Below, piece by piece: positions 3,330 through 18,870 of a stretch of DNA of 64,000 nucleotides. A program made the position numbers and the translations under genes. Within the stretch, counting starts at the first letter, position 1. Each line of letters opens with the position of its first letter. Source of the stretch: an archaeon. GTDB lineage: Archaea; Hydrothermarchaeota; Hydrothermarchaeia; JALTZZ01. Below the pieces are notes generated by a model. The model saw only the letters and a list, made by a program, of their open reading frames with translations. It had not been told where the DNA came from and searched no databases. The DNA is taken from positions 5,556 to 69,555 of the forward strand of contig JALTZZ010000011.1 in assembly GCA_027051165.1 (NCBI GenBank), given 5' to 3'.

Positions 3330-3365
3330 TAGTATTTGTTGTTAGCTAAAAGATGTGAAGCAAAG

Positions 3366-3406
3366 TATAGCCCGGGGCGGATTCGAACCGCCGTCTCGGG
3401 ATCCAG
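3366..3406. repeat. 41-nt direct repeat identical to the 3' portion of tRNA-Gln (18751-18791); putative att site of an integrated island
   Basis: tatagcccggggcggattcgaaccgccgtctcgggatccag occurs at both sites; the sequences diverge immediately after. Confidence 0.7.
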
Positions 3407-3720
3407 TACTTAGGACAATTGCTAAAAATTTCGGTATTAAGGTTAAGCTTTTTGATGAACGTAACACTTACTGAGAATCAGAGGAACTTGTTAGAATAGA
3501 CGGGCTACTTAAATGTTCCAGTTGCTGTATAAAAGCTCATGGAAACGCTGACGATTACTTTGAATATGGCACTCATCTCTTTATGTTAAAGAGATTCTTT
3601 GCTAAGCTGATGTAGCCAGAATATCATTGGTACCCTTAGAAGCACGAACATCCTCTTAAGCACTTTAGTGCAGGGGGGTGTCAATGGTCTCTTCTACATC
3701 TTCATGTGGTGTTTCCATTT

Positions 3721-3904
3721 TCAATTTTTCTTCTTTTCTTTAACATTTCTTCTTACATTTTCAAGTTCAATTTCTGCTTCAACCTCTTTAATAATTCTTT
3801 TATACTCTCCCACTATTTTTCCAATCTCTTGCAATTTCTGGAAGCTTTTTAGGACCAAATATTAAAAGTGCAAGCACCAGTATAATTATAATTTCTTCCA
3901 ACAT
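3721..3904 (-). pseudogene. tatA: Second TatA-like gene with a +1 frameshift
   Basis: MLEEIIIILVLALLIFGPKKLPEIAR then a stop. The +1 frame continues IGKIVGEYKRIIKEVEAEIELENVRRNVKEKKKN, a typical TatA amphipathic helix. Confidence 0.45.
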
Positions 3905-3909
3905 TTTCC

Positions 3910-4068
3910 TTACTCTTTCTTTTCTTTCTCTTCCTCTTTTAAACCTTTCTTGAATTCTCTTTTTGTCTTTCCTAAAGCACGTGCAAGTTCAGGTATTTTA
4001 TTTGCACCAAACAGTATAATTACTACAAGCAATATAAGCAGCCATTCTCCGGCTCCTATGTTAAACAT
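3910..4068 (-). CDS. tatA: Sec-independent (Tat) translocase subunit TatA/E
   Basis: [42 protein letters not shown], the canonical TatA TM plus hinge FG plus amphipathic helix. Not in the ORF track because it is under 60 aa. Confidence 0.75.
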
Positions 4069-4118
4069 CACCTTAACCTCCTTTTGTTTTTAAATTTTTT
4101 TAATAATTATTTAATAAT

Positions 4119-4700
4119 TTAGCTAATAACTTCGAAATATTTTTCATTGAGGCACATTTTGCATACAAGGTTGTTATCAACAATCTTCATGTAGTTTTTT
4201 GGCTGAAGCTCTCCACAAATACTGCACTCGACTATTTCATCTTTTTTAAACTCTAAATTGGCTGTAATTTTCACTTTTTCCACATTGAAATACCTTTCAT
4301 CTAAATTGAGGAAGATTTTAACAAGCTTTTCTCTATCCTCTTTTGAAAGCTTTCCATTTCTATATATAAACTTTTCAACCTCCTTTGAAACCTTGCTTGC
4401 ATCTTTTTTTAGAGAAACTCTATAACCTATTTTAGTATCGTAGTTTGCAAGAGTTAGTGCAAGCTTTCCGTAATCCTTAACAATAAGGTTTAGATTACCG
4501 GGGGTAGTTCCAGCAAATGCTTGCATGGCATCTGGTATGCATACCCTTGTTTCTGCGATTCCTGTTATTCCTCTACCTCTTTTATTTGTTTTTAAATGCT
4601 TATATGCAATTTCGCACATTCTTATCCCAAGTGCTACACCGGGGCTAAGATGCCCATGGATTTTTTCAGCAAGCTTTATAGCTTCTTCTTTGCTTATCAA
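4119..4700 (-). CDS. FmdE/FwdE-family protein with C-terminal zinc ribbon
   Basis: HGHLSPGVALGIRM FwdE-like motif; C-terminal CSICG...CKMC. Confidence 0.65.
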   Translation of the reverse strand: MISKEEAIKLAEKIHGHLSPGVALGIRMCEIAYKHLKTNKRGRGITGIAETRVCIPDAMQAFAGTTPGNLNLIVKDYGKLALTLANYDTKIGYRVSLKKDASKVSKEVEKFIYRNGKLSKEDREKLVKIFLNLDERYFNVEKVKITANLEFKKDEIVECSICGELQPKNYMKIVDNNLVCKMCLNEKYFEVIS

Positions 4701-5911
4701 TACAGGTTCACCTCCACCTCTTCACCTTCTTCTAAATCTCTTTCTGTTAACATGAAGCCATCGGCTAAAACTGTTCTCGTCATTTGAGATATAAGGCTTA
4801 CTGCATATTTATCTCCCTTAGGCAATAAACGAACAGGAGAATCTACATAGCCTACTGGAAAAGCTTTTCCATCGGCAATCTTAACAAAGACTATATATGT
4901 AAATCCCTTTGTTGGTATTCTTACTTCGTGTGCTATTTTTGCTCGAATTTTTGGAAATGGAATATCTCCGTAGAAGAACGCTCTCAAAGCAAACATCATA
5001 GATATAAAAGCTCCTGCTGGCTTTCCTGGAAGGGCAAAAACAGGCTTGTTGTTAACTATACCTATAGCTAATGGTTTTCCCGGTCTCTGCTTAACCCTAT
5101 AAAGCAAAAGATCACCTTCTTCTTTTAAAACCTTTATTACATAATCCTTTCTTCCAACGCTTACACCGCCGCTTGTAACGACTGCATCGTATTCCTTTGT
5201 TCCCTCTATTATCATCTCCCTTATCTCCTCGTAGCTGTCATCGGTTATACCTAAAAAGGCTGGCTCGTGCCCCCATTTCCTCAAAAAGCTCATTATCATT
5301 GGACCATTTGTATCGTTTCTCATTCCCCTCTTTATCTCATCTCCGTTGGAAAACACTGCAACCCTCATCTTCCTATAAACCTTAACCTTCTTGATTCCTA
5401 AGCTGTGAAGAACAGCTATTTCTTGAGGTCCAATACGTCTCTTTGCCTCTATTACAACTTCACCTTCCTTTACCTCACTTCCCCTTTTTAGCACGTATGT
5501 TCCGCTCTTTATTTTTTTACCGTAGAGCAAGCTACCTTTTACTTCAGCAAGCTCAACCTTTAAAACAGCATCCGCACCTCTCGGTAGAGCGGCACCAGTT
5601 GTTATGTAGAACGCTTCTCCTTTATTAAGCTTTGTATCACTCTCATTTCCCGCATATATACTGCCAACTATCTTTAAAGGATAACTGTCAGAGCTCCTTA
5701 TTGCATAGCCATCCATCGTTGCTAAGTCGTGCTTAGGCAATGTTACTGGTGAAACTATGTCTTCTGCAAGCTCTCTATCGAGGGCTTCATCCACATTTAT
5801 CTCCTCAACTCCTCTATTGTAGTAAAATTTTTCCCTAAGTTTTTTCATAAAGCTTATTGAATCATCTATGCTAACCATCTCGTGCATGAAGCTCACCGAT
5901 AATTTCTTCAA
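4697..5911 (-). CDS. moeA: Molybdopterin molybdotransferase MoeA
   Basis: ATMDGYAIRS N-domain motif and a GGVSVG MoCF-binding domain; 404 aa. Confidence 0.8.
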   Translation of the reverse strand: MKKLSVSFMHEMVSIDDSISFMKKLREKFYYNRGVEEINVDEALDRELAEDIVSPVTLPKHDLATMDGYAIRSSDSYPLKIVGSIYAGNESDTKLNKGEAFYITTGAALPRGADAVLKVELAEVKGSLLYGKKIKSGTYVLKRGSEVKEGEVVIEAKRRIGPQEIAVLHSLGIKKVKVYRKMRVAVFSNGDEIKRGMRNDTNGPMIMSFLRKWGHEPAFLGITDDSYEEIREMIIEGTKEYDAVVTSGGVSVGRKDYVIKVLKEEGDLLLYRVKQRPGKPLAIGIVNNKPVFALPGKPAGAFISMMFALRAFFYGDIPFPKIRAKIAHEVRIPTKGFTYIVFVKIADGKAFPVGYVDSPVRLLPKGDKYAVSLISQMTRTVLADGFMLTERDLEEGEEVEVNLY

Positions 5912-6530
5912 TTATGCTCCTCTCAAGCAATATAAAACCTCGTGTAATTTTTGCAACCCCCTTATAAAAATTTACCCTCGATTCTTTCTCCATGACATCG
6001 CAGAACGTTGGTATCCATGATAGTATGTGTTCTTCTAAGAACTCCCTTTCAAAATTTAAATATTTCTTAGCTTCATTTATATTTCCTTTTATATGGGCTT
6101 CCATCTCTCTATAGCAGAGGAGTGACATGAACCTAAGTTCTGTTCCTATATAATCCTGAGGCCCTGGGTATTCATCTATTATTCCAAATCCAGCTTTAAT
6201 AAACTTTTTGAGAACTTCTATTGTAGATTTTCCCATTACTATACCTTCTCCCTTATAAACAGATTCATAAGGCGGAGGCGGACTGTAACCTTCTTTTATA
6301 CCTCTGAAGAGTCTTGTAAACTCTACCAAGAGATTATCTTCTTTCTCTTTTTCTAAAGATTTTTTTAAAATATCAATGCCTTCTTTGATTTCTCTCTCCA
6401 TTCCATTTGTATTTATCTCTTTTAGATTTTCTTTAAGTTTCTTTATAAATTCTTTATCTGGTTTTCTTAAATAGAACTCGCTCAAAAACCAATAAAATTT
6501 GCTCCTTGCTTCTGCTATCTTTTCGAACAA
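5871..6530 (-). CDS. TorD/DmsD-family redox enzyme maturation chaperone
   Basis: TRLFRGIKEGYSPPPPYESVY matches the TorD family signature; 219 aa. Confidence 0.65.
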   Translation of the reverse strand: MFEKIAEARSKFYWFLSEFYLRKPDKEFIKKLKENLKEINTNGMEREIKEGIDILKKSLEKEKEDNLLVEFTRLFRGIKEGYSPPPPYESVYKGEGIVMGKSTIEVLKKFIKAGFGIIDEYPGPQDYIGTELRFMSLLCYREMEAHIKGNINEAKKYLNFEREFLEEHILSWIPTFCDVMEKESRVNFYKGVAKITRGFILLERSIIEEIIGELHARDG

Positions 6531-6556
6531 CTACATCACCACAAAAATAAAGAGAA

Positions 6557-6976
6557 TTATTGTGCAGCGGTTCCATAGAGCTCCTTAGCTATACCTCCCT
6601 TCTTGTGGCAGCCCAAGCAGACTCCTCTGTCAACTACTCCCGGTGCTCCTCTTACTGGAACCTTATACTTGCGCTGGTATATGTAGTCTGGAGCATACTC
6701 CTTAGCTACATGGCACGTTTGACACGTTAAGCCGAGTGCATTTGCATGAATGTTGTGGTATCTCTTGCCTATATCCATGCCGTATTCCTTGCCAACGTCT
6801 ATCTCACCTTTTCTTATCTTTTCAGCAGTTTCTGCAAAAGTGAGCACCTTTATCTTTTCCACAACTTTTGGTTTTTCCTCCGGCTTTGCAGCAGCTGGCT
6901 TTTCCTCTGGCTTTTCGCATGCAGAGAAGACAAATAGAATTCCTACAAAGACAATCAACAACAGGATCTTCCTCAT
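6557..6976 (-). CDS. Membrane-anchored (lipoprotein-like) dihaem cytochrome c, NapB-like size
   Basis: Two CxxCH motifs (CQTCH, CLGCH). N-terminal signal peptide ending VFSAC with a lipobox-like cysteine. KPEEKP linker repeats. Likely real start is the ATG at 6976 with a GAGGTGA RBS; the ORF track starts at a TTG. Confidence 0.7.
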   Translation of the reverse strand: MRKILLLIVFVGILFVFSACEKPEEKPAAAKPEEKPKVVEKIKVLTFAETAEKIRKGEIDVGKEYGMDIGKRYHNIHANALGLTCQTCHVAKEYAPDYIYQRKYKVPVRGAPGVVDRGVCLGCHKKGGIAKELYGTAAQ

Positions 6977-6986
6977 CTCAATCACC

Positions 6987-7646
6987 TCATAGAAGGTAGT
7001 AAACCTGCGGTCTTGTTCCAAACTCCTTCTTTAGCTGTATAGCTCTTCTCTTTGCAATCAGCTTTGAAACTTCGCTGTTGGGATCGTCTAAGTCGCCAAA
7101 ATGTCTTGCTCTTACTGGACAAACCACTACGCAAGCTGGTGTTGATTCCTGATCGCTCCCCGGCTTTTTGCCTTCTTTAATAGCCTTCTCTATCCTGTGC
7201 CAGCAGAGTGTGCACTTCTCAGCCACTCCCGGCTTCTTTCTATGAGTCCAGTGCCTCTTTTCGTATGGTATGTTTTCATAGGGAGTTTTTTCTCTGTTTG
7301 GATACAAAGGCTTGATCTCATCTATAAAGTGAATTACGCCATAGGGACATGCTGCGATGCAGTATCTAGCCCCTTTGCACTTATCATAGTTTATTAGAAC
7401 AACTCCGTATTCGTTTTTGCTTATCGCCTTTGCTGGACAAGCTTTTACGCAAGGCGGATTTTCACAGTGCATGCAGCTTACCGGAACAAAAACCCTTCTA
7501 ACGCTTGGATACCTCCCCTGCTCATACTCGTTAACATACAACCAGTAGTTTCCCGGCTGAACGAAGTTCTCTATTTTGCAAGCAGCTACGCATGCTCTAC
7601 AACCAATGCACCTCTTTAAGTCAACAACAAGACCATATTTAACCAT
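6987..7646 (-). CDS. 4Fe-4S ferredoxin-type electron-transfer subunit of the molybdoenzyme
   Basis: Four Cys clusters (CIGCRACVAAC, CMHCENPPCVKAC, CKGARYCIAACP, CTLC...CVVVCP); 219 aa. Confidence 0.85.
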   Translation of the reverse strand: MVKYGLVVDLKRCIGCRACVAACKIENFVQPGNYWLYVNEYEQGRYPSVRRVFVPVSCMHCENPPCVKACPAKAISKNEYGVVLINYDKCKGARYCIAACPYGVIHFIDEIKPLYPNREKTPYENIPYEKRHWTHRKKPGVAEKCTLCWHRIEKAIKEGKKPGSDQESTPACVVVCPVRARHFGDLDDPNSEVSKLIAKRRAIQLKKEFGTRPQVYYLL

Positions 7647-7656
7647 TTAAACCACC

Positions 7657-10338
7657 TCACGCCTTATAAACCTTTACCTTTGTGTCGTTGAACGAGTTCA
7701 TTCCTGATATCATGTCTGGATGAAGCTCGAGAACCCAGTTTATAGCGGTGCCCTTCTTCGCATATTCTGGAAAGGCTCTCGCAAACCTTCCGTAGTGGTA
7801 GCTTACTGCAACCGTATCAGGTCTTATACCTTCTGTAAGCTTTGCAATCGCCTTTACTTTTCCAATCCTCGACTCTATCCAAACTTCATCGTTATCCTTT
7901 ATTTCGAGCTCCCTTGCGGTTTTAGTGTTTATTAGAACGTAGTTGTAGTTTGAGTCGTGCGCGACCTCTCTAAGCACTGGATAAAGTGCATCTTGGCTTG
8001 CTTGATTTCTATACATTCTTTTGTATGTTATAAGATAGAATGGATAGTCCTTAGCTTTTTTATGAGGGGTCGGGAAAGCATGCTCCTTTATCGGTATTGG
8101 TGAAAGCTTTATATCTAAGAGCCTATCCATGTTGTCTTCTTCATACCACTCTTTAAAAACTGCAGCTACTTTTGGATTCTTCTTTATAATTTCCTTAACC
8201 TTTTCCTTTGATACAACAAGATTTTCAGCGTAGAAATTCATCTTCGGCTTTCCTTTTCCTTTGAACTTCTTCTCAACACCGCTAAGATATCTTTTCTCGA
8301 CATTGAGCTTCTTTCCAACAAATGCATGCTTTATTGCATATTCAAATGGCTTTCCAGTCTTATCTTCCCATATAACCCTTACATAGTCCTTAGCTTTATA
8401 TTCTCTTCCTTTTTCAAACTTAACCTTTTTAAGACCCCACTTCTTGTTCAAGTTTTCTATATACTTCTCCATGAACCCGTTTCCAAGCCTCTTTGCAATC
8501 TCCCAAAGTATGTCCCAGTCCTGATACTTTAGGTTGTAGGGGTTTGCTACTGGCTGTCTTATAGCAGTGTGCTTTGTTCCGGGTGTCCACCTCGTTGGGC
8601 TGAAGTGCCAGCTCTCCAAGTAGCTCTTGTTTGGCAGAACTATGTCGCACATCTGTGCAACTTCGTCAAGGGCGATGCTTATAGAAACGTTGAACGTCTT
8701 CTTTAAACCTTCAAACTGCTTCTTTATGTCTGATGTTGACATAGGTCTGTTTGTTGCATAGAACATCTGCATTTCAGGCTTGTATTCTAAGCCGTATTTT
8801 TCCGGCTCAAGTGCTGTTAGCATTGGTTGCTGTGCAACGTTGTGTGTAGCGTGCGGGAAGAAAACGCTCTCAGCAAGATCAATCCTCTGTGGAGGATACT
8901 CGCACTTGCTTGGTCCCATATATTTAGGCTTCTTGTATACTCCGTGCAGTATTAAGCCGCCTACAGCATCTAAGCATCCTACGAGCATTTGAACGAGCAG
9001 AGCCGCTCTCCAGTTCTGAACGCCATACTCCTTCGCAGACAGTCCTCTGAAGCTGTGTATCGCTACTGGTCTGTATCTGAGCTCCTTTCCTTCGATGTTT
9101 ATTGTAGAGCCTATCCTTGCATTCTCTCCAAACTCTATCGCAATCTTTCTTATAGTTTCTGCTGGAACACCAGTTATTTCCTCAGCTTCCTTTAGATCTA
9201 TCTCAAATACTTCTTCCTTCCATATCCTAAAAGCAGTTTTATACTTTTTGCCATCTACAGTTACCTCTGCATCAAGCTCTATTTCCTCAGCTTCATCGTA
9301 AGTAACTGCTCTGTTTTTCTTCTTGTCCCATACCAATGGAACCTTCTTAGCTTCCTTTCCAAAGCCTACCTTCTTCTTTAAGAACTTTCCATCCTCTCCA
9401 ACCAAAAAAGGCGCATTTGTATACGTTATGAGGAAGTCTTTATCAACATAGCCGTTTTCTATTAGAACTCTCGCCATCGCTAATAAGAATACAACATCAG
9501 TCCCCGGCTTTATTGGGATCCATTCATCAGCCTTTGCTCCTAAGTTGCTCAATCTCGGCTCTACAACGACGAGCTTCATTCCCCTCTCCATAGCATCTAA
9601 GCATGCATGATCGAGCCACCTTGCCCACTGCTCCGCTTCAAAGTAGTTAGCTCCCATGTTTATAAGGTAGTTGCAGTATTCTAAGTCCGGAAGAATTCCA
9701 TGGTATCCCCAGGTTATCTCATCTGCGATGTGCCTTGCTGCCTCACATGTTGTAGTTCTATGAACGTTGTTTGGCGAACCCACAGCCTTTAGAAAAGCCT
9801 TTGTTACCTTATCCCCCATTAAATACTTTCCATGCCCCCACTGGAAAACAAACTTCCTTGGATCTTCTTCCATTATTTTCTTTAATCTTTTTGCTATTTC
9901 ATCAAAAGCTTCTTCCCAGCTTATTTCAACAAACTTTGGATCAGCATCTGGACTTTTGTCCGGATTCGTTCTCTTTAGAGGTGCCTTTATTCTGTATGGG
10001 TTATACATGTCAAATATTCCGCTTAGACCTTTTGGACAGTTGCCCCAGTTGAAGTATTCGGCTCTATTCTCATCTGGATATATTGCTCTTGCAACTCCAT
10101 CCACAACCTTAACCTTTATTCCGCAGAAGTTTACGCAAACGCAGCATGTTGTTGGAATATACCTCTCTCCTTTTAGGCTCTGCTCAAGTGCATATGCTAA
10201 ACCACTCGATTTTTCCGCTTCAGCTTTTATCTTAGCTAAATTTGCCAGAGAATTTCCCAAAGCAGCAAATGCAAGAAGTGCACCAGTTTTCTTTAGAAAC
10301 TCCCTTCGATTCATTAAAATACCATCTTTCATGCACAT
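7657..10338 (-). CDS. Tat-exported molybdopterin oxidoreductase catalytic subunit (DMSO reductase family; Psr/Phs/Ttr/Arr-type)
   Basis: Twin-arginine NRREFLKK with an A-rich h-region; CCVCVNFCG...C (C-x2-C-x3-C-x28-C) FeS motif; 893 aa. Probable true start at 10332 or 10314. Confidence 0.85.
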   Translation of the reverse strand: MCMKDGILMNRREFLKKTGALLAFAALGNSLANLAKIKAEAEKSSGLAYALEQSLKGERYIPTTCCVCVNFCGIKVKVVDGVARAIYPDENRAEYFNWGNCPKGLSGIFDMYNPYRIKAPLKRTNPDKSPDADPKFVEISWEEAFDEIAKRLKKIMEEDPRKFVFQWGHGKYLMGDKVTKAFLKAVGSPNNVHRTTTCEAARHIADEITWGYHGILPDLEYCNYLINMGANYFEAEQWARWLDHACLDAMERGMKLVVVEPRLSNLGAKADEWIPIKPGTDVVFLLAMARVLIENGYVDKDFLITYTNAPFLVGEDGKFLKKKVGFGKEAKKVPLVWDKKKNRAVTYDEAEEIELDAEVTVDGKKYKTAFRIWKEEVFEIDLKEAEEITGVPAETIRKIAIEFGENARIGSTINIEGKELRYRPVAIHSFRGLSAKEYGVQNWRAALLVQMLVGCLDAVGGLILHGVYKKPKYMGPSKCEYPPQRIDLAESVFFPHATHNVAQQPMLTALEPEKYGLEYKPEMQMFYATNRPMSTSDIKKQFEGLKKTFNVSISIALDEVAQMCDIVLPNKSYLESWHFSPTRWTPGTKHTAIRQPVANPYNLKYQDWDILWEIAKRLGNGFMEKYIENLNKKWGLKKVKFEKGREYKAKDYVRVIWEDKTGKPFEYAIKHAFVGKKLNVEKRYLSGVEKKFKGKGKPKMNFYAENLVVSKEKVKEIIKKNPKVAAVFKEWYEEDNMDRLLDIKLSPIPIKEHAFPTPHKKAKDYPFYLITYKRMYRNQASQDALYPVLREVAHDSNYNYVLINTKTARELEIKDNDEVWIESRIGKVKAIAKLTEGIRPDTVAVSYHYGRFARAFPEYAKKGTAINWVLELHPDMISGMNSFNDTKVKVYKA

Positions 10339-10960
10339 GCCCCCTTCAACAAGTGTTTATATGAAGAAACATATATATAAAATTTACTCTAAAACATGTT
10401 GAGAAATCATTATTATGACACAAACATGCACATAGATATTGTGTCAGCTTGTAGAGCAGCGAGCTGGAAAAATTTTAACTACCATTAAGTTATAGGCAAC
10501 GAAGAAATCATTTTAAAAGCCGTTGAAATCATCAACGATTTTGCTTCGCGATTGCCTAAAATATTTGTGATGGACAGATGTTTAGAGATGGAACTGTTGC
10601 ATTTTTCTGTTCTTTCTCGAGCAATTAACTTCTTCTGCACATGCTGTGAAAGCATGATCAAGCTCGTAGCCTCTCGCTATGTATTCCCTTTTAATCCTCT
10701 TATCACAATCTTTGGAGATGTCTTCAGCTTTCTTCCCTTCTTCTGCTCAAATCTTATTGTGATCCTCTGCGATCCTTTCGCTTCTTCAAATGCGAAAGTT
10801 ATTTATCCTATTAAGCTATACCTGCCAGCAGCTCAGTATATACTGGTCTTCTCTGCCCGTATATTTGTTCATAGTTGTTCCATCTTTCACGTGCATGTTC
10901 TTTCAACAATCGTTCATATGAACAAAGTTTATATATAAAACCTACTAAAAACATATATGT

Positions 10961-11653
10961 ATGGAAGTTGATATTCAAGAAGAACTTAACAAAGAAATAA
11001 TCAAAAATTATAGCAGCAACTGCAAGAAGGTGCTAATAGTGGATTACGATGGAGATTTAAAAAACAAACTAAAAAAGAAGCTTTCTTCTTATGGATTTAT
11101 CGTGAAAACCGTAGAAAACGGTGAGGAGGCTCTAAAAATAATAAAAAACGAAGATTTTGATCTTATAGTGGCAAATGAAATCTTACCAGTAGTTAACGGG
11201 ATTGAACTCCTTAGAACCATTAGAAAGATGAGCTTGCGAACAAAATTTATAGTTTTAGCCGAGTATCCAACAGTAGAAAGTGCTGTAGAAGCTATGAAAC
11301 TCGGTGCAAGCGAGTATATACCGAAACATGTAAAAATAAATGAAATTTTTTCAAAAATATTAAAAACGCTTGAAGAAGTTGAATTCAAAGAAATTTTTAT
11401 GAACGATCATTTAGTTAAATGCATGTTGAATCCAACAAGAAGATCCATTATATTATATCTCTTTAAAAACGACAGAGCAAAGTTTATAGATATTATGCAT
11501 GCTGTTAATATAGAAAATTCAGCAAAATTAAGTTTTCATATAAATTACCTAAAAAAACACGATGTAATTAAAAGAGATAAAGAAAACTCCTATTATCTAA
11601 CAAAAAAAGGAAAAATCATGGCAAATATTATCCTATCTTACCTCATACCATAA
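10961..11653 (+). CDS. Receiver-like domain fused to ArsR-like wHTH; phospho-acceptor Asp replaced by Asn (pseudo-receiver)
   Basis: DFDLIVANEILPVVNG where the canonical D of the receiver is N. C-terminal LNPTRRSIILYL...HINYLKKHDVIKR wHTH. Confidence 0.55.
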   Translation: MEVDIQEELNKEIIKNYSSNCKKVLIVDYDGDLKNKLKKKLSSYGFIVKTVENGEEALKIIKNEDFDLIVANEILPVVNGIELLRTIRKMSLRTKFIVLAEYPTVESAVEAMKLGASEYIPKHVKINEIFSKILKTLEEVEFKEIFMNDHLVKCMLNPTRRSIILYLFKNDRAKFIDIMHAVNIENSAKLSFHINYLKKHDVIKRDKENSYYLTKKGKIMANIILSYLIP

Positions 11654-11699
11654 AGTGATGTCTCTTAAGTTTTTATAGACATAAAACCTCATTATAATT

Positions 11700-12557
11700 A
11701 TGTATGGTATTCCAGTAATGACCAAAATAAGAAATAAGAGTCTTACGTTTATCATTCTTATTATAATACTCCTTCTATCTTATAATGTCCTAAAGCTTGG
11801 GTTTAAGGAATTAAAATTTGTGGATGGAAAAATAGCGTTTCAATGGGACATACACTACGGTCTTCTCGAAACTTACACTCACCTCTACTCTGGGACTTTT
11901 CACATTATTGCAAGTATTATAGGAATATTCTTCTTTTACAGAAGTTTTAGGGGAGCTAAATACATGTGGAATCTTATAATGCTAAGCTTTCTTACCCTTG
12001 GTCTTGTTGCTGCTGGAGAAGTCTTTGAGCACTACTTTTTAAACTACAAGGGATACAACTTCATGCACTATTTGCACATGTTAAATGCACCTTTAGGAAT
12101 GTTCTTTATCTACATGGCTATAAGGGAGTTTTATGAGGGAAAAAGAATATTTCATCCGAATTTAGGATTGTTCATCGTAATACTAACTTTTTTAGTGTCT
12201 TACATTCTTGCAGAAAATTCAAAATATATATACGACATTCGTATAGAAAAGCCGATTGTATATTTAACACTACCCCCAACGATAGTTTTTACAATACTCT
12301 TGCTATTTATAGAAGCTAAAAAAATATTTAGGGAATATGGGCTGCTCGTTATGAACATATCTGCACTTGCACTCTCCCATTCCCTTCTTGCAATCTTCAT
12401 CGTTTTTGGAAGGTATGCACATATACATCACGATGCTTGGCTGTATGTAGTAACGCATTCAATACAAAACATACTTCATGTAGCATGCGGATGTGTTATA
12501 TTAACGTTTGCAGCATGTATAAAGATCGTTCACGAAAAATTTAGAAAAATTTGCTAA
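11700..12557 (+). CDS. His-rich polytopic membrane protein of unknown function
   Basis: Roughly 7 predicted TM segments and many His (HYGLLETYTHLYSGTFH, HYFLNYKGYNFMHYLHM, HIHHDAWLY). Confidence 0.35.
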   Translation: MYGIPVMTKIRNKSLTFIILIIILLLSYNVLKLGFKELKFVDGKIAFQWDIHYGLLETYTHLYSGTFHIIASIIGIFFFYRSFRGAKYMWNLIMLSFLTLGLVAAGEVFEHYFLNYKGYNFMHYLHMLNAPLGMFFIYMAIREFYEGKRIFHPNLGLFIVILTFLVSYILAENSKYIYDIRIEKPIVYLTLPPTIVFTILLLFIEAKKIFREYGLLVMNISALALSHSLLAIFIVFGRYAHIHHDAWLYVVTHSIQNILHVACGCVILTFAACIKIVHEKFRKIC

Positions 12558-12558
12558 A

Positions 12559-12999
12559 TTAACGGTTGTTTAATATCATTCTTATATCATCTACAAATCT
12601 CTTTGCAAATCTTTCACCAAACAGTATTGAGAACTCCCTTTCTATATTTTTAAGCCTCTCCTCAACATCTCTTGAAGCTGCAATGTTTTCCCTTATAATT
12701 TTTTCTTTTCCTATTTCTCCAAGAGACTCTTTAGCAATTTCCATTAAAAGATTTTCGATTTCAACAATTTTATCGTAGATCCTCCTATCTGTTAAGCTGT
12801 ATATTCTTTTTTGTCCCCTAACTTCGCTTTTAACTATGTTGTGTTCTCTGAGCTTCTTTAGATGATGCGAGACAAGAGACTGGTTGGAATTTAGAATCTC
12901 TGAAAGCTCACCAACACTCTTTTCCCCTGATCCAAGTATTTTTACTATCTCAAGTCTGTTCTTATCGCTCATCAGTTTGAAGAATGTATGAACATTCAT
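12559..12999 (-). CDS. ArsR-family HTH regulator with C-terminal coiled-coil extension
   Basis: NRLEIVKILGSGEKSVGELSEILNSNQSLVSHHLKKLREHNIV. Confidence 0.6.
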   Translation of the reverse strand: MNVHTFFKLMSDKNRLEIVKILGSGEKSVGELSEILNSNQSLVSHHLKKLREHNIVKSEVRGQKRIYSLTDRRIYDKIVEIENLLMEIAKESLGEIGKEKIIRENIAASRDVEERLKNIEREFSILFGERFAKRFVDDIRMILNNR

Positions 13000-13259
13000 A
13001 TAAATAGCTATAAAGATTTAACTATTAAAAGAATATAGTAAAGCGAACTACTTTTAGTGAATGTGGGAGCTTTCGTGGAATTTGACCCATTTACAGTGCA
13101 ACACCTTACAATGCCTTTGCTCTTGCTCACTGGACGACGACAAACCACCCTTAAGGTTGTTAAAACAGAGCTTAAACTCCGCTATAGCTAAACTATCATA
13201 TTTGCCAGCGTTAACGTTAGGCGGAGATTTTCACCAAGCTCTTTCTTTCGCAAAGAGTC

Positions 13260-14270
13260 TTATAAAGATAGATAATTTTCGAAAATTAAGGAATAAATAT
13301 AAGCTGAGAAAGATGAGAAGAAGATTACAAGAAAAATGTATGTCAAGGAGATCTTAATGCCAGCAATTCTTGATATTGCTATGAAGTTTGGAAGACTAAC
13401 TGCAGGACCGGCTAAGAGAAGTGCAACTGCAGCACTTTTACTCATTCCAAGATCTATTAAAGATTCTGTTATGGGAACCTCCGTTAGCGTTGCAAAGTAG
13501 AAAAGAGCACCTAAAGAACCTGCTATAAGATAGCTAATAAAGTTTTCTTTCCCCAAAAATTCTTTTATAATTTCTTCTGAAGCAAAAGCCTTTATAACTC
13601 CTGCAAAAAATATTCCTATCAGTATTAGGGGGAAAATCATCCTAAAAAGGATATACGTTTCTCTTATCCAGTATATCGTTTCATCTCTTTCAAACTTCTT
13701 AAACAAAAATAAAAATATAAGGGCTAAGATTGCAAGGGAGTAGATACCCTTACCAAATATTAAAAGAAGGAAGAGAAGAAAAATTAAATAAAGATGTTTC
13801 CTCTCATAAACCTTTCCAGAAGCAGCATGGATAAATTCTCCTTTACTTTTAAAGAAAATAGATATTAAAGCTCCTATAATTATTGACATAGTTACTGCAA
13901 AGAATGCCCTGAAAAATCCTATATCTAACCCTATAACTCTTGCTGTATAAACTATTGCTAATATATTTATTGCGGGTGCTGAATATAGAAATGTAAACAA
14001 CGGGCCTATTTTTGCACCTACCCTATAGAGACCTGCAAAAAGTGGTATTACCGTGCAAGAGCAAACTGCTAAAACGGTTCCAGCTGATGCTGAGAATACA
14101 TAAGAAACATATTTTCTCCCAAAATATTTTAGCAAAACCTCTTTCCTGAAAAAAGCAGAAATTGCACCAGCAATAAAGAAAGCTGGTAGAAGGCATGTTA
14201 GAACGTGAAAAGATAAATATTCTTTGAGAGCTTCATATCCGCTTATTAAAACCTTCTCTAAAATATTCAT
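13260..14270 (-). CDS. Permease (two-cysteine predicted-permease family often found in ars operons)
   Basis: 336 aa, about 8 TM, VCSCTVIP motif. Confidence 0.45.
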   Translation of the reverse strand: MNILEKVLISGYEALKEYLSFHVLTCLLPAFFIAGAISAFFRKEVLLKYFGRKYVSYVFSASAGTVLAVCSCTVIPLFAGLYRVGAKIGPLFTFLYSAPAINILAIVYTARVIGLDIGFFRAFFAVTMSIIIGALISIFFKSKGEFIHAASGKVYERKHLYLIFLLFLLLIFGKGIYSLAILALIFLFLFKKFERDETIYWIRETYILFRMIFPLILIGIFFAGVIKAFASEEIIKEFLGKENFISYLIAGSLGALFYFATLTEVPITESLIDLGMSKSAAVALLLAGPAVSLPNFIAISRIAGIKISLTYIFLVIFFSSFSAYIYSLIFENYLSL

Positions 14271-15328
14271 ACAGCAATCACCCTTCTATTTTGAAGAAAC
14301 ATAGAAACATTTACAAGGCTTAAAAGTATGGGAACTTCAAGCAGCGGTCCTATAACAGTTGCAAAGGCTTGCATGCTGTTTATACCAAACATTCCTATAG
14401 CCACAGCAATTGCAAGCTCAAAGTCGTTGCTTGCCGCAGAGAATGCTAAGGCTGTCGCCTTTTCATGATCCGTCCTTATTATATTTGTTGCAACGAAATA
14501 AGTTATAAACCACATGATGAAGAAATAAGCAGTTAGAGGAACAGCAATTCTAAAAACATGGTATGGAAGCTCTACGATATTCCCACCTTTTAAAGAAAAC
14601 ATTATGAATATTGTGTAAAGTAACGCTACAGGTGTTATAATACTTATCCTTCTTGAAAATTCATTCTCATACCAAAAATCTCCTTTTTTTGATCTAAGAA
14701 TTTTTCTTGTTAAGAATCCAGCAATAAATGGTATTCCAAGGAATATAAAAACTGTTTTTGCAACCTCGTATATTGAGATATCAATGTAAACACTTCTAAA
14801 TATTTCAAGCTTGCTTGGAATAACGTTTAGGAAAATATAGATGTAGAAACTGTATGTTAAGATTTGAAATATGGCATTTAAGGCTACGAGACCAACTGCA
14901 AGCTCTCTATCTCCTCTTGCAAGGTCGTTCCACACAATTACCATAGCTATACATCTTGCAAGCCCAACCATGATTACACCCATAGCATATTCAGGATAAT
15001 CCCTTAGAAGCAAAGCTGCAAGGAAAAACATTAAAAAAGGACCAAATATCCAGTTTTGGAACATTGAAAATAAGAGAATCTTCTTGTTAAATAAAACGCT
15101 TCCTATTTTCTCATATTTAACCTTTGCAAGTGGAGGATACATCATAAGTATTAAACCGAGAGCTATGGGCAGTGAAGTTGTTCCTATGCTTAAAGAGCTT
15201 AGGAATTTTGAAAAGCTGGGAAAAGAATATCCAACAAATATTCCTAAAGCCATTGCACTAAAAATTTCAAGAGTGAGATACTTTTCAAACAATCTTAGTT
15301 TTGACAAAATTCTCCACCTCTCTTTCAA
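14267..15328 (-). CDS. ACR3-family arsenite efflux transporter (bile acid:Na+ symporter superfamily)
   Basis: 353 aa, about 10 TM, VIGPLLEVPILL segment typical of ACR3; adjacent to ArsR/ArsD-like genes. Confidence 0.55.
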   Translation of the reverse strand: MKERWRILSKLRLFEKYLTLEIFSAMALGIFVGYSFPSFSKFLSSLSIGTTSLPIALGLILMMYPPLAKVKYEKIGSVLFNKKILLFSMFQNWIFGPFLMFFLAALLLRDYPEYAMGVIMVGLARCIAMVIVWNDLARGDRELAVGLVALNAIFQILTYSFYIYIFLNVIPSKLEIFRSVYIDISIYEVAKTVFIFLGIPFIAGFLTRKILRSKKGDFWYENEFSRRISIITPVALLYTIFIMFSLKGGNIVELPYHVFRIAVPLTAYFFIMWFITYFVATNIIRTDHEKATALAFSAASNDFELAIAVAIGMFGINSMQAFATVIGPLLEVPILLSLVNVSMFLQNRRVIAV

Positions 15329-15584
15329 CAGCCTTTAAAACTTGATCGTATGTAGAAAATCCTTCTAAAATGATTTTATCGTTTAAAACAACGGTATTTA
15401 CCATTGTTACACCTAAGTCGAAGGCTCTTTTTGTGTTTACCTGCATTATAAACCAATCAACCTCAACGTTATACTTTTCCTCTATATACTTGCAAATTTT
15501 TTCAAGGCTTTTTCTTAAAAGCTCGTAGCTGCAAGAGCAAGAGGCAGGTTCAACGAAAACCTCTAAATAAACTCTTTTATCCAT
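15285..15584 (-). CDS. ArsD-like arsenic metallochaperone homolog
   Basis: VFVEPASCSCSYELL resembles the ArsD N-terminus FDPAMCCSTGVCG (vicinal cysteines in a thioredoxin-like fold). Confidence 0.45.
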   Translation of the reverse strand: MDKRVYLEVFVEPASCSCSYELLRKSLEKICKYIEEKYNVEVDWFIMQVNTKRAFDLGVTMVNTVVLNDKIILEGFSTYDQVLKAVEREVENFVKTKIV

Positions 15585-15829
15585 TTTTCTACTTCCTCCT
15601 CCCTTGGAACCCTGCCGCTTGTGACAACCTTTTCGTTTATAACAATTCCAGGTGTCATCATAACTCCATATTTTGCTATTTCGCTTATATCTTTTACCAT
15701 CTCAATTTTTGCATTTAATTTAAGCTTATTAACAACCTTCTCAACAATCTTCTTTGTCATGTTGCACTTTGGACAGCCTGTGCCAAGAACCTTTATCACG
15801 ATCATGTTTATACTTGAAATTTTTATCAA
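15563..15829 (-). CDS. Thioredoxin-fold redox-active disulfide protein (CPKC)
   Basis: GTGCPKCN active site; 88 aa. Confidence 0.6.
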   Translation of the reverse strand: MIKISSINMIVIKVLGTGCPKCNMTKKIVEKVVNKLKLNAKIEMVKDISEIAKYGVMMTPGIVINEKVVTSGRVPREEEVEKWIKEFI

Positions 15830-15859
15830 CTGAAATTTTTTTCAAATGTTATTTTTTTA

Positions 15860-16192
15860 ATGCTTTATGTGGAGTGCAGATTGATAGTGTTAGATGTTGA
15901 TGAAGAGGTGTTTGAAGAGAAGTGCAAAATTGTTAAGCTCTTAGCTAATCCTATAAGGCTAAAAATGGCTTATATAATGTCAAAAAGAGAAGTATGTAAC
16001 TGCGAGCTTGAAAAGCTTTTTAAAGTTGATCCAACGCTCATATCTCACCATTTAAAAAGATTTAAAGAAGCTGGTGTTTTAAAAGAGAGAAGAGAAGGTA
16101 AATGGAGAAAGTATAGAATAGATGATGAAAAAGTTAAAAAAATAATCGAAGTTTTATTTGAAGAAAATACTTCAGGAAGATTTAAACTATAA
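15860..16192 (+). CDS. arsR: ArsR/SmtB-family metalloid-responsive repressor
   Basis: EVCNCEL resembles the As(III)-binding ELCVCDL motif, followed by HTH LISHHLKRFKEAGVL. Confidence 0.7.
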   Translation: MLYVECRLIVLDVDEEVFEEKCKIVKLLANPIRLKMAYIMSKREVCNCELEKLFKVDPTLISHHLKRFKEAGVLKERREGKWRKYRIDDEKVKKIIEVLFEENTSGRFKL

Positions 16193-16202
16193 ACAACCAA
16201 CA

Positions 16203-16958
16203 TTACTTTGACGAAATGGAGACCAAAATTCCACTTACAGAATGAACTTGAACATCTTTAAATCCTACTTTCTCAAGTATCTCTCTGAATTCATCTTTTG
16301 TCATCCCAGGATGTTCCTTGAAACCCATTATCTCTACAAAGTATTTTTCGGCCCATATATTATCTGTTCTTTCAATTTCTAAGGCAACAAGAGTCCCGCC
16401 CTTCCTTAGAGCTTTTTTAAGTCGTGAAAGATAATAGATTGTGCTTGTCTCTTTCCGTTCCATTATAGTACCCACTCCTATCATAGAAATTATCTTGTCG
16501 TAAAAATTTTGCTTCAGGTTTTTTAGATCAAACTGGTAAGTTACATTAGCATCTTTCAACCATTCTTTTGTCAGTTTTGCATCTAAGGTGCAGAGGATCT
16601 TTTCACCCTTTTTGATACTAATATATCTATTTATCACATTAATGAAACGCTTTATGTAAGCGCTCCAATCACAGCAAGTAAGTTTTGTCCAGCTGGAGAG
16701 TAGCCGGCTAAGTTCCTGCACACCTTTCGGTGTTATCTTGTAAATCTTTTTCTTAGCAGCTTCCGTTCTAACGATCTCGTGGAATATAAGTCCTTTCCTC
16801 TCTAAGGAGTGAAGTGTTGGATATATGGTTCCTGGACTCTTTATATTAAGTTTTTTCATGAGTTCTACACCGCACATAGGATTTTCTCTTAAAAGAAGCA
16901 TAATTTTTGCCTGCAAACTTCCCTTGATTTCTGTATCAGCAAATATCATATCGATCAC
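16203..16958 (-). CDS. wHTH (PadR/ArsR-like) fused to a small SAM-methyltransferase-like domain
   Basis: N-terminal GVELMKKLNIKSPGTIYPTLHSLERKGLI; C-terminal MIGVGT...GGTLVALEIE Rossmann-like. Confidence 0.4.
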   Translation of the reverse strand: MIDMIFADTEIKGSLQAKIMLLLRENPMCGVELMKKLNIKSPGTIYPTLHSLERKGLIFHEIVRTEAAKKKIYKITPKGVQELSRLLSSWTKLTCCDWSAYIKRFINVINRYISIKKGEKILCTLDAKLTKEWLKDANVTYQFDLKNLKQNFYDKIISMIGVGTIMERKETSTIYYLSRLKKALRKGGTLVALEIERTDNIWAEKYFVEIMGFKEHPGMTKDEFREILEKVGFKDVQVHSVSGILVSISSK

Positions 16959-17076
16959 CGATAAATTGGGTAAATTTTATATAGCATTTTATCGACAATA
17001 ACGATATCGGTAGTATCGATAATATTACGTTCAGAAAGAACGAGAAGCCAAGTAGCAAACAAAACAGGTGTAAACG

Positions 17077-17430
17077 ATGGAAGAGTTTCATTGTAACTGT
17101 GCATCTTGTGGTAGATTACCTGAGCAGAAAAAAGGAGTACTTAACCTATGGGTAGAGTCTAAAGATGGCATGCTATGCGAGAATTGCTGGAAAAGAGGGA
17201 TTGATATGTTGAAAGCTTCGGCTATACCGGTGAAAAGAAAATATGAGGTGAAGGAAGCTTTCTGTTGCTTCTGTGTGCTCTGCGGCAGAGCACCTCCCGA
17301 TCCAAAGGTTAAGATATGGGTCGAAACAGAGTTCGGTTGTCTTTGTGAGATCTGCATGAAAAGAATAATGAGAAAAGGTATTGAACGGGAGATAAAGAAA
17401 ATGTTAGGGGGTGCTGAAAATGGTTGTTAA
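17077..17430 (+). CDS. Tandemly duplicated C4 zinc-ribbon protein
   Basis: Two repeats CxxCG(R)xP...W(V)E(T/S)xxGxLCExC... Confidence 0.5.
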   Translation: MEEFHCNCASCGRLPEQKKGVLNLWVESKDGMLCENCWKRGIDMLKASAIPVKRKYEVKEAFCCFCVLCGRAPPDPKVKIWVETEFGCLCEICMKRIMRKGIEREIKKMLGGAENGC

Positions 17431-17701
17431 GGTGCAGATCTTTGTAACCCCAACCTGTCCAAGTTGCGAACCTGTTTTTGAGGAAACTTTCAGAGTGGTT
17501 GAAGAGGTCAGAAGAAAATTAGATATAGAAATTGATGTGGAAAAGATTGATGTAACTAAGAAAGAAAACTTGAAGCTGGCTCTAAAGTATGGGGTTAAAT
17601 CCGTGCCTACAATTGTAGTGTGTGGAAAGGAAGTAATAAGAGGTGTTCCAAATAAAGACACCCTTATAAAGATTATTAGAAAATGTTCAGGTTTTGTGTA
17701 A
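17420..17701 (+). CDS. Glutaredoxin/thioredoxin-like small redox protein (CPSC)
   Basis: VTPTCPSCEP active site; GGGGGTG RBS 7 nt upstream of the ATG at 17420. Confidence 0.65.
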   Translation: MVVKVQIFVTPTCPSCEPVFEETFRVVEEVRRKLDIEIDVEKIDVTKKENLKLALKYGVKSVPTIVVCGKEVIRGVPNKDTLIKIIRKCSGFV

Positions 17702-17840
17702 ATTTTTTTATTGGTTGAAATTTTTCAGATAAGCAAAAAATTGCTTTTTATTTAGAATAAATTAATAAACTAACAGATAACCCTCCTGCATCACCCATTT
17801 AGGGTTGCTATAAAATTTACAAGAGTTCCACCAAAGTTTT

Positions 17841-17852
17841 TCACAGCTGTGA
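17841..17852. promoter_or_regulatory. Perfect 12-nt palindrome TCACAGCTGTGA (operator-like), copy 1 of 3
   Basis: Self-complementary; near-copies at 17929-17940 and 18639-18650. Confidence 0.4.
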
Positions 17853-17928
17853 GAATCAGGAACTTATAAGAATTTTATAGAATTGCTATAAGCATGCACA
17901 ACCAAGTTGGCAATCAATTGACAATTTC

Positions 17929-17940
17929 TCACAACTGTGA
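17929..17940. promoter_or_regulatory. Near-palindrome TCACAACTGTGA, copy 2
   Basis: One mismatch to copy 1; sits just 3' of vapC. Confidence 0.35.
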
Positions 17941-17946
17941 AGACAT

Positions 17947-18421
17947 CTAAATCTGATATCTTTTCCTCAATTCTTTTTTAATCTCATCTAAGCTTTTACC
18001 CTTAAGTAATTCCTCAACAGCCTTTGTATCCAAAGCTAAAAACTTCTCAGACTTAAGACCATATATTATAAAATCCCTATCGTTAGTCCATATCGGTATA
18101 TTAAGCTTCAAAGCCAATGCAATAAAAGGAGAATCCTTAACATCGAAATTCTTCGCAATTTCATAAGCTTCATTTAATTTATCTTTATAGTAGAACTCTG
18201 GTATCACCTTCAAAACCTTTGGGAACTTCTGTGTCAGGATATAAAGTATCTGATCTTCCGATAAAGAAATTTTGTCTTATTTCGTAAAATATATAAGCAG
18301 GAACATATAGGGATAATCTTCTGCCAAATATAAACCTCTTAATCTTTAAACTCTTTATTAAAGCAGAAACGATAATATTCGTATCAACTACAAGTCTAAC
18401 ATTTTCTCGATTTTTTTCCAT
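17947..18421 (-). pseudogene. vapC: PIN-domain toxin VapC with a single-nt frameshift
   Basis: N-terminal VVDTNIIVSAL (ORF 18185..18421) and C-terminal SPFIALALKLNIPIWTNDRDF (ORF 17947..18213). Upstream of ORF2 the same frame reads coding-like SEDQILYILTQKFPKVLKV, placing the shift near 18285. Confidence 0.55.
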
Positions 18422-18609
18422 GCTCTCTCCTTTATATTTTCACTTATTTTCTCAACTTCATCATCTGATATTCTGGATTCCTCTAAAGACCTTTCCCAGA
18501 TAGCATCTATAATTAGGTCGTGTAAAATTTCATTTATTTTTTCTTTCAACAAGTTTTCTGACTTTTCATCTATCCACTCAGGAACCTCTATTGTAATCGT
18601 CTTAGGCAT
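18388..18609 (-). CDS. Putative antitoxin-like small protein upstream of vapC
   Basis: 73 aa acidic protein overlapping the vapC start; no recognisable domain by eye. Confidence 0.3.
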   Translation of the reverse strand: MPKTITIEVPEWIDEKSENLLKEKINEILHDLIIDAIWERSLEESRISDDEVEKISENIKERAWKKIEKMLDL

Positions 18610-18638
18610 ATCCTTTCACCTATTCTTAACGTCGTTTC

Positions 18639-18650
18639 TCACAGCTGCGA
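18639..18650. promoter_or_regulatory. Near-palindrome TCACAGCTGCGA about 30 nt upstream of the putative antitoxin start, copy 3
   Basis: One mismatch to copy 1; promoter-proximal, consistent with an autoregulatory operator. Confidence 0.35.
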
Positions 18651-18750
18651 AAAGTTGTTCAGAACATTCCTCAGCAAGAACTTAAATGCTTTGAACCTTC
18701 TATCAGAAATAAAGCTCAAGGAATATTTAGATATGGAAAAAAAGGAAAAA

Positions 18751-18791
18751 TATAGCCCGGGGCGGATTCGAACCGCCGTCTCGGGATCCAG
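18751..18791. repeat. Direct repeat partner (attL/attR) within and adjacent to tRNA-Gln
   Basis: Identical 41 nt to 3366-3406. Confidence 0.7.
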
Positions 18792-18826
18792 AGTCCCGAA
18801 TGATTGACCAGCTACACCACCGGGCT
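18753..18826 (-). tRNA. tRNA-Gln (anticodon CUG)
   Basis: Reverse complement AGCCCGGTGGTGTAGCTGGTCAATCATTCGGGACTCTGGATCCCGAGACGGCGGTTCGAATCCGCCCCGGGCTA folds as a cloverleaf: 7-bp acceptor stem, anticodon loop CTCTGGA, T-loop GGTTCGAATCC. No encoded CCA. Confidence 0.85.
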
Positions 18827-18859
18827 GTTGCAGATCAACAATCCTCTAAAACATTAACA

Positions 18860-18870
18860 TTATAAAAATA
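18860..18870 (-). promoter_or_regulatory. TATA-box-like element upstream of tRNA-Gln
   Basis: Minus-strand TTATTTTTATAA about 35 nt upstream of the tRNA 5' end. Confidence 0.35.

Follow-up and report, generated by a model that had tools for sequence, protein, structure and literature searches.

A metabolic genomic island at a tRNA-Gln(CUG) gene of a Hydrothermarchaeota archaeon

The stretch of archaeal DNA studied here (64,000 nt, positions 5,556 to 69,555 of the forward strand of contig JALTZZ010000011.1, GenBank assembly GCA_027051165.1; hereafter the window) holds about 15.4 kb of respiratory, metalloid-resistance and toxin-antitoxin genes between two copies of a 41-nt sequence, one of which is the 3' half of a tRNA-Gln(CUG) gene. 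A reading made from the letters alone (the sequence-only reading) had taken the locus for a genomic island integrated at the tRNA gene, and its account of the gene content stands as it was given. The locus raises the question of whether this segment was inserted at the tRNA gene, whether it came as one unit, and whether it can still move. We found an insertion at the 3' half of tRNA-Gln with a 41-bp duplicated core, a regenerated tRNA, no integrase and a modular distribution among relatives. The segment 3407-18750 is very probably a "captured" genomic island, which came by site-specific recombination and is now without its integrase.

Insertion at the tRNA-Gln gene

The exact 41-mer TATAGCCCGGGGCGGATTCGAACCGCCGTCTCGGGATCCAG occurs twice on the plus strand of the window, at 3366-3406 and 18751-18791, with no mismatch, as the sequence-only reading had noticed, and none of 100 dinucleotide-preserving shuffles contained any 41-mer match. 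A repeat finder gave 45 nt with one mismatch (3362-3406 and 18747-18791); the four additional nucleotides are A-rich and may be a chance match, and the 41 nt were taken as the core. There was no third or degenerate copy in the window, where the best other ungapped match reached 21/41.

The proximal copy belongs to an intact tRNA-Gln, which has the A1-U72 pair and whose 3' end points into the island. Within the tRNA the repeat covers C34, the anticodon stem, the variable loop, the T arm, the acceptor strand and the discriminator, and is followed to its end by TA. It had been described as reaching from the discriminator to the anticodon stem; it is the 3' part of the tRNA as claimed, but slightly longer, with the anticodon itself included. 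The distal copy is not a second tRNA gene: at 3366-3406 ARAGORN found no tRNA and Rfam gave a partial match under the threshold. The attachment (att) sites of SSV-type and pNOB8-type archaeal integrases are 40-50 bp long and lie in tRNA genes, with strand exchange at the anticodon loop (PMC8371274). The att of the island, running from C34 to the second nucleotide after the discriminator, has 41 bp.

The insertion was seen directly by comparison with a related Hydrothermarchaeota-like metagenome-assembled genome (MAG), contig JBPLHO010000054.1 of GCA_054046405.1 (L098), which was found through a homolog of the hydantoinase-like gene of the left flank (70% amino acid identity). The order in L098 is AAA kinase, TrmO, M48 peptidase, tRNA-Gln(CUG), 190 nt, MobA, hydantoinase-like protein, radical SAM protein, LeuA-like protein and LysR, which is the right flank of the window fused directly to its left flank. 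The tRNA-Gln genes are identical (74/74 nt). By BLASTN, L098 7171-9214 matched window 20790-18751 (80.6%), 9174-9222 matched 3406-3358, and 9395-11650 matched 2861-629 (73.3%); the three segments are collinear, and the breakpoints 18751 and 3406 are the exact borders of the repeat. After the core, the bases of L098 (CCTCGCTTG) are like the outer left flank of the window (CTTTGCTTC) and unlike the island side (TTTTTCCTT), and the outer flank of the distal repeat is orthologous to the L098 DNA downstream of the tRNA.

Because L098 joins the two flanks and the BLASTN alignments break at these positions, 3407-18750 is an insertion with repeat-matched borders, which is the product predicted by attB x attP recombination, and the tRNA-Gln at 18753-18826 is the target gene, regenerated at the tRNA-proximal att junction. 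The sequence-only reading had proposed to look in related genomes for an empty tRNA-Gln site. Together with the canonical geometry, the site in L098 supports its claim of integration into the tRNA gene; neither of the findings that it had named as refuting (the same gene order in relatives without the repeat, or a second tRNA gene at the repeat) turned up. A scan of genome contigs with the M48 peptidase gave mostly bacterial loci among the best 80, none of them syntenic and none with an empty site, and a metagenome scan with the hydantoinase-like flank protein gave no match.

The locus was probably formed as follows. A tyrosine recombinase would recombine a circular element, at its 41-bp attP-like sequence, with the 3' half of the chromosomal tRNA-Gln(CUG) gene, by which an intact tRNA would be regenerated proximally and an orphan tRNA 3' half left distally. 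The integrase would later be lost, as its absence suggests, leaving a captured island of cargo genes. The island would then be immobilised, though the perfect att repeats would still permit excision by an integrase acting in trans.

Two modules with different distributions

In the stretch between 18894 and 13291 the window is matched by three independent assemblies, L090, L091 (from MAG GCA_015520175.1) and L092, with 97.6-98.5% nucleotide identity, and most of the proteins are 100% identical. This shared stretch contains the tRNA, the identical tRNA-proximal junction, the toxin-antitoxin pair and the ars/thioredoxin genes; the presence of the same proximal junction in the L092 lineage is what site-specific integration predicts. 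Past arsP the three contigs continue with an 11-nt spacer and then NikR, triose-phosphate isomerase, fructose-bisphosphatase, dihydroorotate dehydrogenase and glyceraldehyde-3-phosphate dehydrogenase (GAPDH), without the molybdoenzyme genes and without a second repeat. The island is a mosaic of a tRNA-proximal module, with the toxin-antitoxin, ACR3, ArsP, ArsR and thioredoxin genes, and a distal module around an Arr/Arx-like molybdoenzyme predicted to be exported by the twin-arginine translocation (Tat) system, with its Fe-S subunit, dihaem cytochrome c, chaperone, MoeA, FmdE, TatA and regulators.

The L092-type contigs likely represent a different species which shares the proximal module almost identically. 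Their core genes are 83.5% identical to those of L093, which comes from run SRR10312489, a run that also yields window-identical contigs, and NikR is followed by ArgRS on both L093 and L094. L097, from the same sample as L092, has a hydantoinase/MobA flank 81-83% identical to the window with the order GatD, methyltransferase, MobA and no repeat, so the adjacency of tRNA and methyltransferase is lost in that lineage. Variants of M48, TrmO, MobA and hydantoinase like those of the window are absent from the L092-type assemblies. The alternative is that the L092-type difference is a rearrangement polymorphism within one species. With different species, a near-identical proximal module would mean that it was transferred or introgressed recently at this one tRNA gene, and the proximal module was probably shared in this way between lineages not long ago. 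The L092-type arrangement also means that a part of the history was rearrangement or non-site-specific recombination.

With one species or with two, the 15.4-kb unit is not homogeneous: either it was built in two steps, or the L092 lineage lost the distal part and its att by rearrangement. It is possible, though rather doubtful, that the toxin-antitoxin/ars module and the molybdoenzyme module arrived separately and that the 15.4-kb unit was never one mobile element. Either two integrations would have occurred in tandem at this tRNA, the internal att being lost, or one module would later have inserted into the other. Against this, no internal att or degenerate tRNA fragment was found between the repeats (best match 21/41), and no terminal repeats bound the distal module. 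The boundary at 13291 is sharp, as separate arrival would have it, and the proximal module occurs without the distal one in L090-L092, while the molybdoenzyme cluster of Candidatus (Ca.) Pyrohabitans (L086) lacks the toxin-antitoxin module. The L092 arrangement can, however, equally be a derived rearrangement, in a lineage that also lost the adjacency of tRNA and methyltransferase (GatD-methyltransferase in L097).

Integrase, age and mobility

An integrase was searched for with Pfam, PHROGs and NCBIfam. No tyrosine or serine recombinase domain was found in the open reading frames (ORFs) of the island or in the sizeable ORFs of the window, which bears out the earlier statement that no integrase is present, and the island has no replication or transfer genes. 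The largest unassigned gap of the island spans about 620 nt, none of whose six frames looks coding; a six-frame reading of all island gaps longer than 100 nt revealed nothing coding-like. Beside the left repeat, a stop-interrupted coding-like remnant had been suggested at 3407-3612. There is one plus-strand frame with one internal stop, which continues the frame through the repeat, but it could not be demonstrated to be an integrase remnant, or even coding. The proposed search with hidden Markov models stayed empty: 3407-3612 had no Pfam match even at E<=10 and no PHROG match, and 3475-3612 (46 aa) gave 0 matches in a HMMER scan of 1.84 billion representative proteins. Towards the island, the frame that runs through the repeat meets a stop after 22 codons. 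At the other end it is already closed 7 codons ahead of the repeat, and there the promoter region of the antitoxin leaves no room for int(N). As for a parent element, the exact 39-nt att/tRNA pattern had 0 matches in IMG/VR and in the JGI metagenome contigs, and searches of IMG/VR with the PadR-fusion protein, the Zn-ribbon protein and the A subunit gave no match.

Several observations weigh against the reading as a site-specific integration product. An integrase gene at one island end, as expected of tRNA islands, is absent; so are int(N)/int(C) halves of the SSV type, and the reconstructed attP gives no long ORF. Neither an integrase nor a remnant nor a parent element with an integrase was found from which the family of the recombinase could be told. 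The empty site lies in a different species, with 73-81% nucleotide identity in the flanks, and none was seen in the same species. In the L092-type contigs the proximal module abuts the NikR core genes and has no distal repeat, and the species split rests on co-occurrence in samples (L092 with L097, the window with L093). Finally, the GC content, the GC content at third codon positions (GC3) and the relative synonymous codon usage of both modules are within the null of contiguous gene runs of the flanks, with the GC3 of the distal module marginal (0.370 against a null maximum of 0.362). The test of composition and codon usage that the sequence-only reading had proposed did not flag the island and is uninformative here; compositional deviation is a common, not an obligatory, feature of genomic islands.

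The host-like composition fits a donor from the same phylum. Together with the syntenic cluster in Ca. Pyrohabitans it suggests that the cargo came from within the same archaeal phylum. The window itself, from a deep-sea vent archaeon, has relatives named Hydrothermarchaeota: besides the cluster in Ca. Pyrohabitans, the best genome match of the M48 peptidase in the right flank is a Hydrothermarchaeota MAG (68%), and the named homologs of the hydantoinase-like flank gene belong there too.

A second island-bearing strain, L088, gave information on the age of the island. Aligned over 7,821 nt, the island parts of the window and L088 have 33 mismatches (99.58% identity), and the adjacent chromosome has 42 in 2,376 (98.23%; Fisher p about 1e-9); the island is about four times less diverged than its flank. 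This points, short of proof, to an island that is younger than the split of the strains or that recombines among them.

The same data could be explained by an element that is still mobile, which we consider unlikely. A trans-acting integrase from a related element, virus or plasmid would excise and reintegrate the island, which would be the archaeal counterpart of bacterial cis-mobilisable elements (CIMEs) and satellite islands and a route for modules between species. The att copies agree at 41/41 positions and do not differ between two strains, and the divergence of the island is below that of its flank. The proximal module, at the same proximal junction, has about 98% identity between lineages that share only about 83% in their core genes. 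For SSV2 and pTN3 it is documented that a related integrase from outside can excise the integrated element (PMC8371274). Against this, no integrase gene was found in the 64-kb window, an exact match to the att core was absent from IMG/VR and JGI metagenome contigs, and no helper, circular or excised form, or same-species empty site was found; moreover, the missing distal att in the L092 type is unlike a clean site-specific transfer. Somewhat less likely again is that integrase-free metabolic cassettes between perfect tRNA-Gln att sites are excised, shuffled and moved between Hydrothermarchaeota species by integrases of unrelated co-resident elements. If this were true, the tRNA-Gln gene would be a shared docking site at which arsenic-resistance and respiratory modules are exchanged and recombined.

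It is very improbable that no integration occurred at all, so that the repeat would go back to an old local duplication of the tRNA region or to a chromosomal rearrangement, and the genes would be ancestral and lost in L098. The borders in L098 match the repeat to the nucleotide and one copy is kept as the tRNA end, which is the attB product; the orphan copy is non-functional and yet 41/41 identical, and the repeat starts exactly at the anticodon, like att sites in tRNA genes. The same empty site could also come from a deletion by recombination between the two copies, for which the repeats must have been created beforehand. The host-like composition, the related molybdoenzyme cluster in the same phylum and the location of MobA, which is needed for the bis-molybdopterin guanine dinucleotide (bis-MGD) cofactor, just outside the repeat would all agree with ancestral genes. 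A scaffold misjoined through the 41-nt repeat from the chromosome and a separate element is hardly credible, because, although short-read Logan contigs break at or near the repeat (L085 ends at 3395 and L082 at 18800), the left junction was assembled independently in L088 from another sample, the right junction is present in the region assemblies L090-L092, of which L092 spans the tRNA, and the full arrangement stands on two records (ENA 68.5 kb, NCBI 89 kb).

Gene content, flanks and known systems

From the distal to the proximal end, the captured island contains Tat and maturation genes, molybdoenzyme genes, regulators, ars/thioredoxin genes and the toxin-antitoxin pair (Table 1).

Table 1. 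Coordinates of the island, its genes and the adjoining chromosomal features in the window.
Feature	Position	Strand	Remark
Class-I methyltransferase	3048-3329	-	Left flank, chromosomal; truncated to 93 aa, intact 176 aa in L088
Inserted segment	3407-18750		15,344 nt; absent from the orthologous L098 site
Distal 41-nt repeat copy	3366-3406		Orphan 3' tRNA-Gln fragment; 41/41 identical in L088
Unassigned spacer beside distal repeat	3407-3799		About 390 nt; holds ORF-like 3407-3612
TatA, truncated	3800-3904	-	34 aa; translation, PF02416
TatA, intact	3910-4071	-	53 aa; translation, PF02416
FmdE-domain protein	4119-4700	-	Pfam
MoeA	4697-5911	-	Pfam
TorD/NarJ-type chaperone	5871-6530	-	Pfam; NCBIfam TorD-like matches all under curated cut-offs
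Dihaem c-type cytochrome lipoprotein	6557-7021	-	Two CXXCH motifs
Four-cluster Fe-S subunit	6987-7646	-	Domain searches
Bis-MGD molybdopterin catalytic subunit	7657-10338	-	893 aa; twin-arginine signal; predicted Arr/Arx/Psr clade
Response regulator with winged helix	10961-11653	+	Molybdoenzyme module
Membrane protein	11700-12557	+	285 aa; about six predicted transmembrane segments
ArsR	12559-12999	-	Regulatory gene, molybdoenzyme module
Module boundary	13291		L090/L091/L092 similarity ends in last codons of arsP
ArsP-type permease	13260-14270		Metalloid-resistance block 13260-17701
ACR3	14267-15328		NCBIfam TIGR00832, 419.9 bits against equivalog cut-off 282.8
99-aa protein	Between ACR3 and thioredoxin		Metalloid-resistance block
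Thioredoxin	15563-15829		Metalloid-resistance/thiol-redox block
ArsR (second)	15860-16192		Metalloid-resistance/thiol-redox block
PadR-fusion protein	16203-16958		Metalloid-resistance/thiol-redox block
Zn-ribbon protein	17077-17430		Metalloid-resistance/thiol-redox block
Thioredoxin-like protein	17411-17701		Metalloid-resistance/thiol-redox block
PIN toxin, split over two overlapping ORFs	18185-18421, 17947-18213	-	78 + 88 aa; Pfam PIN_2 on both halves; toxin-antitoxin pair
Antitoxin-like ORF, intact	18388-18609	-	73 aa; toxin-antitoxin pair
Proximal 41-nt repeat copy (att core)	18751-18791		C34 to discriminator + 2 nt
tRNA-Gln(CUG), intact, archaeal	18753-18826	-	ARAGORN; Rfam RF00005, 59.7 bits against gathering score 29
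M48 (HtpX-like) peptidase	19011-19853	-	Right flank, chromosomal; adjoins tRNA in occupied and empty sites

The best PDB match of the catalytic subunit is ArrA (6cz7). Its score was 201 bits, where the equivalog cut-off for ArrA is 1600, and it was also far under the PhsA cut-off; the Fe-S subunit scored 171 bits against the ArrB cut-off of 450. The Mo-ligand Cys is conserved, and the catalytic subunit has WGHGKY where ArrA has RGRY; the ArrA motif is (R/K)GRY and the ArxA motif XGRGWG. The subunit thus reaches neither the equivalog cut-offs nor the motifs of Arr and Arx. It is taken as an enzyme of the Arr/Arx/Psr clade and is not assignable to Arr, Arx or Aio, and its link to arsenic comes only from the gene neighbourhood, here and in Ca. 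Pyrohabitans. In contrast, ACR3 reached the cut-off of the arsenite efflux family TIGR00832.

The cluster has likenesses with known Arr/Arx clusters (ArrAB 6cz7; Arx PMC6683785): a catalytic subunit with a Tat signal, a four-cluster Fe-S subunit and a TorD-like chaperone, and ACR3, ArsR and a response regulator linked to the cluster here and in Ca. Pyrohabitans. It differs in that a dihaem cytochrome c stands in place of an ArrC/ArxC-type membrane anchor, and no quinol-oxidising membrane subunit was recognised among the island genes. The module had been called a self-contained respiratory module, which is fair for cofactor insertion and export. The response regulator and the 285-aa membrane protein are transcribed divergently from the enzyme genes. 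CcmB and CcmF for cytochrome c maturation are encoded on the host chromosome (window 59063-59701 and 60974-63076, plus strand), so the dihaem cytochrome c of the island can be matured by the host.

The closest named relative of this cluster is that of Ca. Pyrohabitans, which has the same gene order and 64% (A subunit) and 80% (B subunit) identity. Its locus (L086, JBPNPY010000090.1, 7874-21662) has two FmdE, two TatA, ACR3, four response regulators and a histidine kinase; it also holds the start of a second molybdopterin oxidoreductase and adjoins MoaE/MobB, a chromosomal context. No tRNA was found in the 21.7-kb L086 locus.

Some island genes are damaged. In the TatA at 3800-3904 the normal C-terminal helix runs on in another frame to about 3668, and the same 34-aa ORF is present in L088; it is probably a frameshifted pseudogene. 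The PIN toxin has an identical split in L092 (475-949), and it was probably inactivated before the module was shared. Between the modules lies a spacer of about 200 nt (13055-13262) without an ORF, whose GC content is up to 50% in an otherwise 35% GC genome. It was considered as a structured RNA and rejected, with folding z-scores of +0.2 and -0.1 and no Rfam match. The trio of PadR, Zn-ribbon and Trx genes recurs in the distant archaeon L100 as a chromosomal thiol-redox cassette, and its context there was rejected as a mobile backbone.

The methyltransferase between the distal repeat and MobA is chromosomal, because L097 has GatD, methyltransferase and MobA without a repeat. Relative to L088 it is truncated by a 79-nt deletion near 3097, and there is a 1-nt indel at 2982. 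On the right side, the 67 nt upstream of tRNA-Gln (18827-18894; L098 9072-9138; L092 1-67) have only 2-3 differences across the three lineages, in which the neighbouring genes are only 70-85% identical. They are presumably a strongly constrained promoter or leader region of the tRNA. The 97% identity of L092 with the window in these 67 nt was considered as a transfer reaching past the tRNA, which was rejected as L098 is equally conserved there. The M48 peptidase (L098 8112-8954) is 95% identical in amino acids between the window and L098, with neighbours at 69-85%, and most of its best genome matches are bacterial at about 60% (among the best 80 loci). The M48 gene may thus be under unusual constraint, or may have undergone gene conversion or been acquired horizontally.

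Elsewhere in the window, the region 43983-53601, near a tRNA-Leu(CAG) (54816-54903, minus strand), consists of same-strand ORFs, mostly without a family match, and its GC content falls to 0.29-0.31. One ORF encodes a 464-aa protein with a replication domain of the Rep ORF2/G2P type (PF23343, E 2e-10); others encode proline-rich membrane proteins and a 289-aa P-loop ATPase. The block looks like another integrated element, of viral or plasmid kind. No integrase was recognised in this block and no repeat of the tRNA-Leu was found. An S49/NfeD-type peptidase ORF (54849-55892, minus strand) overlaps the first 55 nt of the tRNA-Leu on the same strand; either its true end differs or the overlap is real.

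The island at tRNA-Gln is a real and ordinary tRNA-integrated genomic island of the classical kind, and it does not change the understanding of such islands. New points are the build from two modules with different distributions and the lower divergence of the island than of its flank between strains. It gives a nucleotide-resolved case in which a complete periplasmic molybdoenzyme system and metalloid resistance were gained via a tRNA gene in an uncultured archaeal phylum of vents. For the annotation of Hydrothermarchaeota MAGs it means that this respiratory trait is accessory, not core.

Among archaea, tRNA-integrated elements have exact att sites of 40-50 bp in the 3' half of the tRNA from the anticodon loop, with a regenerated tRNA and an orphan 3' fragment at the far end (PMC8371274), and the island has the same design. 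In SSV-type elements int(N) and int(C) halves overlap both att copies, whereas none is detectable in the island, and the cargo here is purely metabolic or for resistance, without any viral or plasmid backbone gene. The part of the review cited here does not have a Hydrothermarchaeota-like phylum among its host lineages. It uses "gene capture" for an element trapped in the chromosome once the integrase function is lost (She et al. 2001, Nature 409:478, via PMC8371274; see also She, Brugger & Chen 2002). The island would be a case of this with purely metabolic cargo, a part of which was recently shared between lineages.

In bacteria, the island can be compared with two kinds of elements. Arsenic islands occur in bacteria, for example in Thiomonas and Herminiimonas. 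Like them, the present island lies at a tRNA 3' end with a direct repeat, carries ars genes with an arsenic-type molybdoenzyme cluster and regulators, and is variably present among relatives; unlike it, they usually keep a P4-type integrase beside the tRNA and often have a biased composition. CIMEs are att-flanked cargo without recombination or transfer genes, and the present island has two intact att sites in the same way. CIMEs derive by deletion from an integrative element, and their mobilisation in trans has reportedly been demonstrated in Streptococcus (Pavlovic et al. 2004; Bellanger et al. 2011), while for this island it is a possibility only. By analogy, then, the closest archaeal counterpart is the gene-capture class and the closest bacterial one the arsenic island, and the anatomy resembles that of a CIME.

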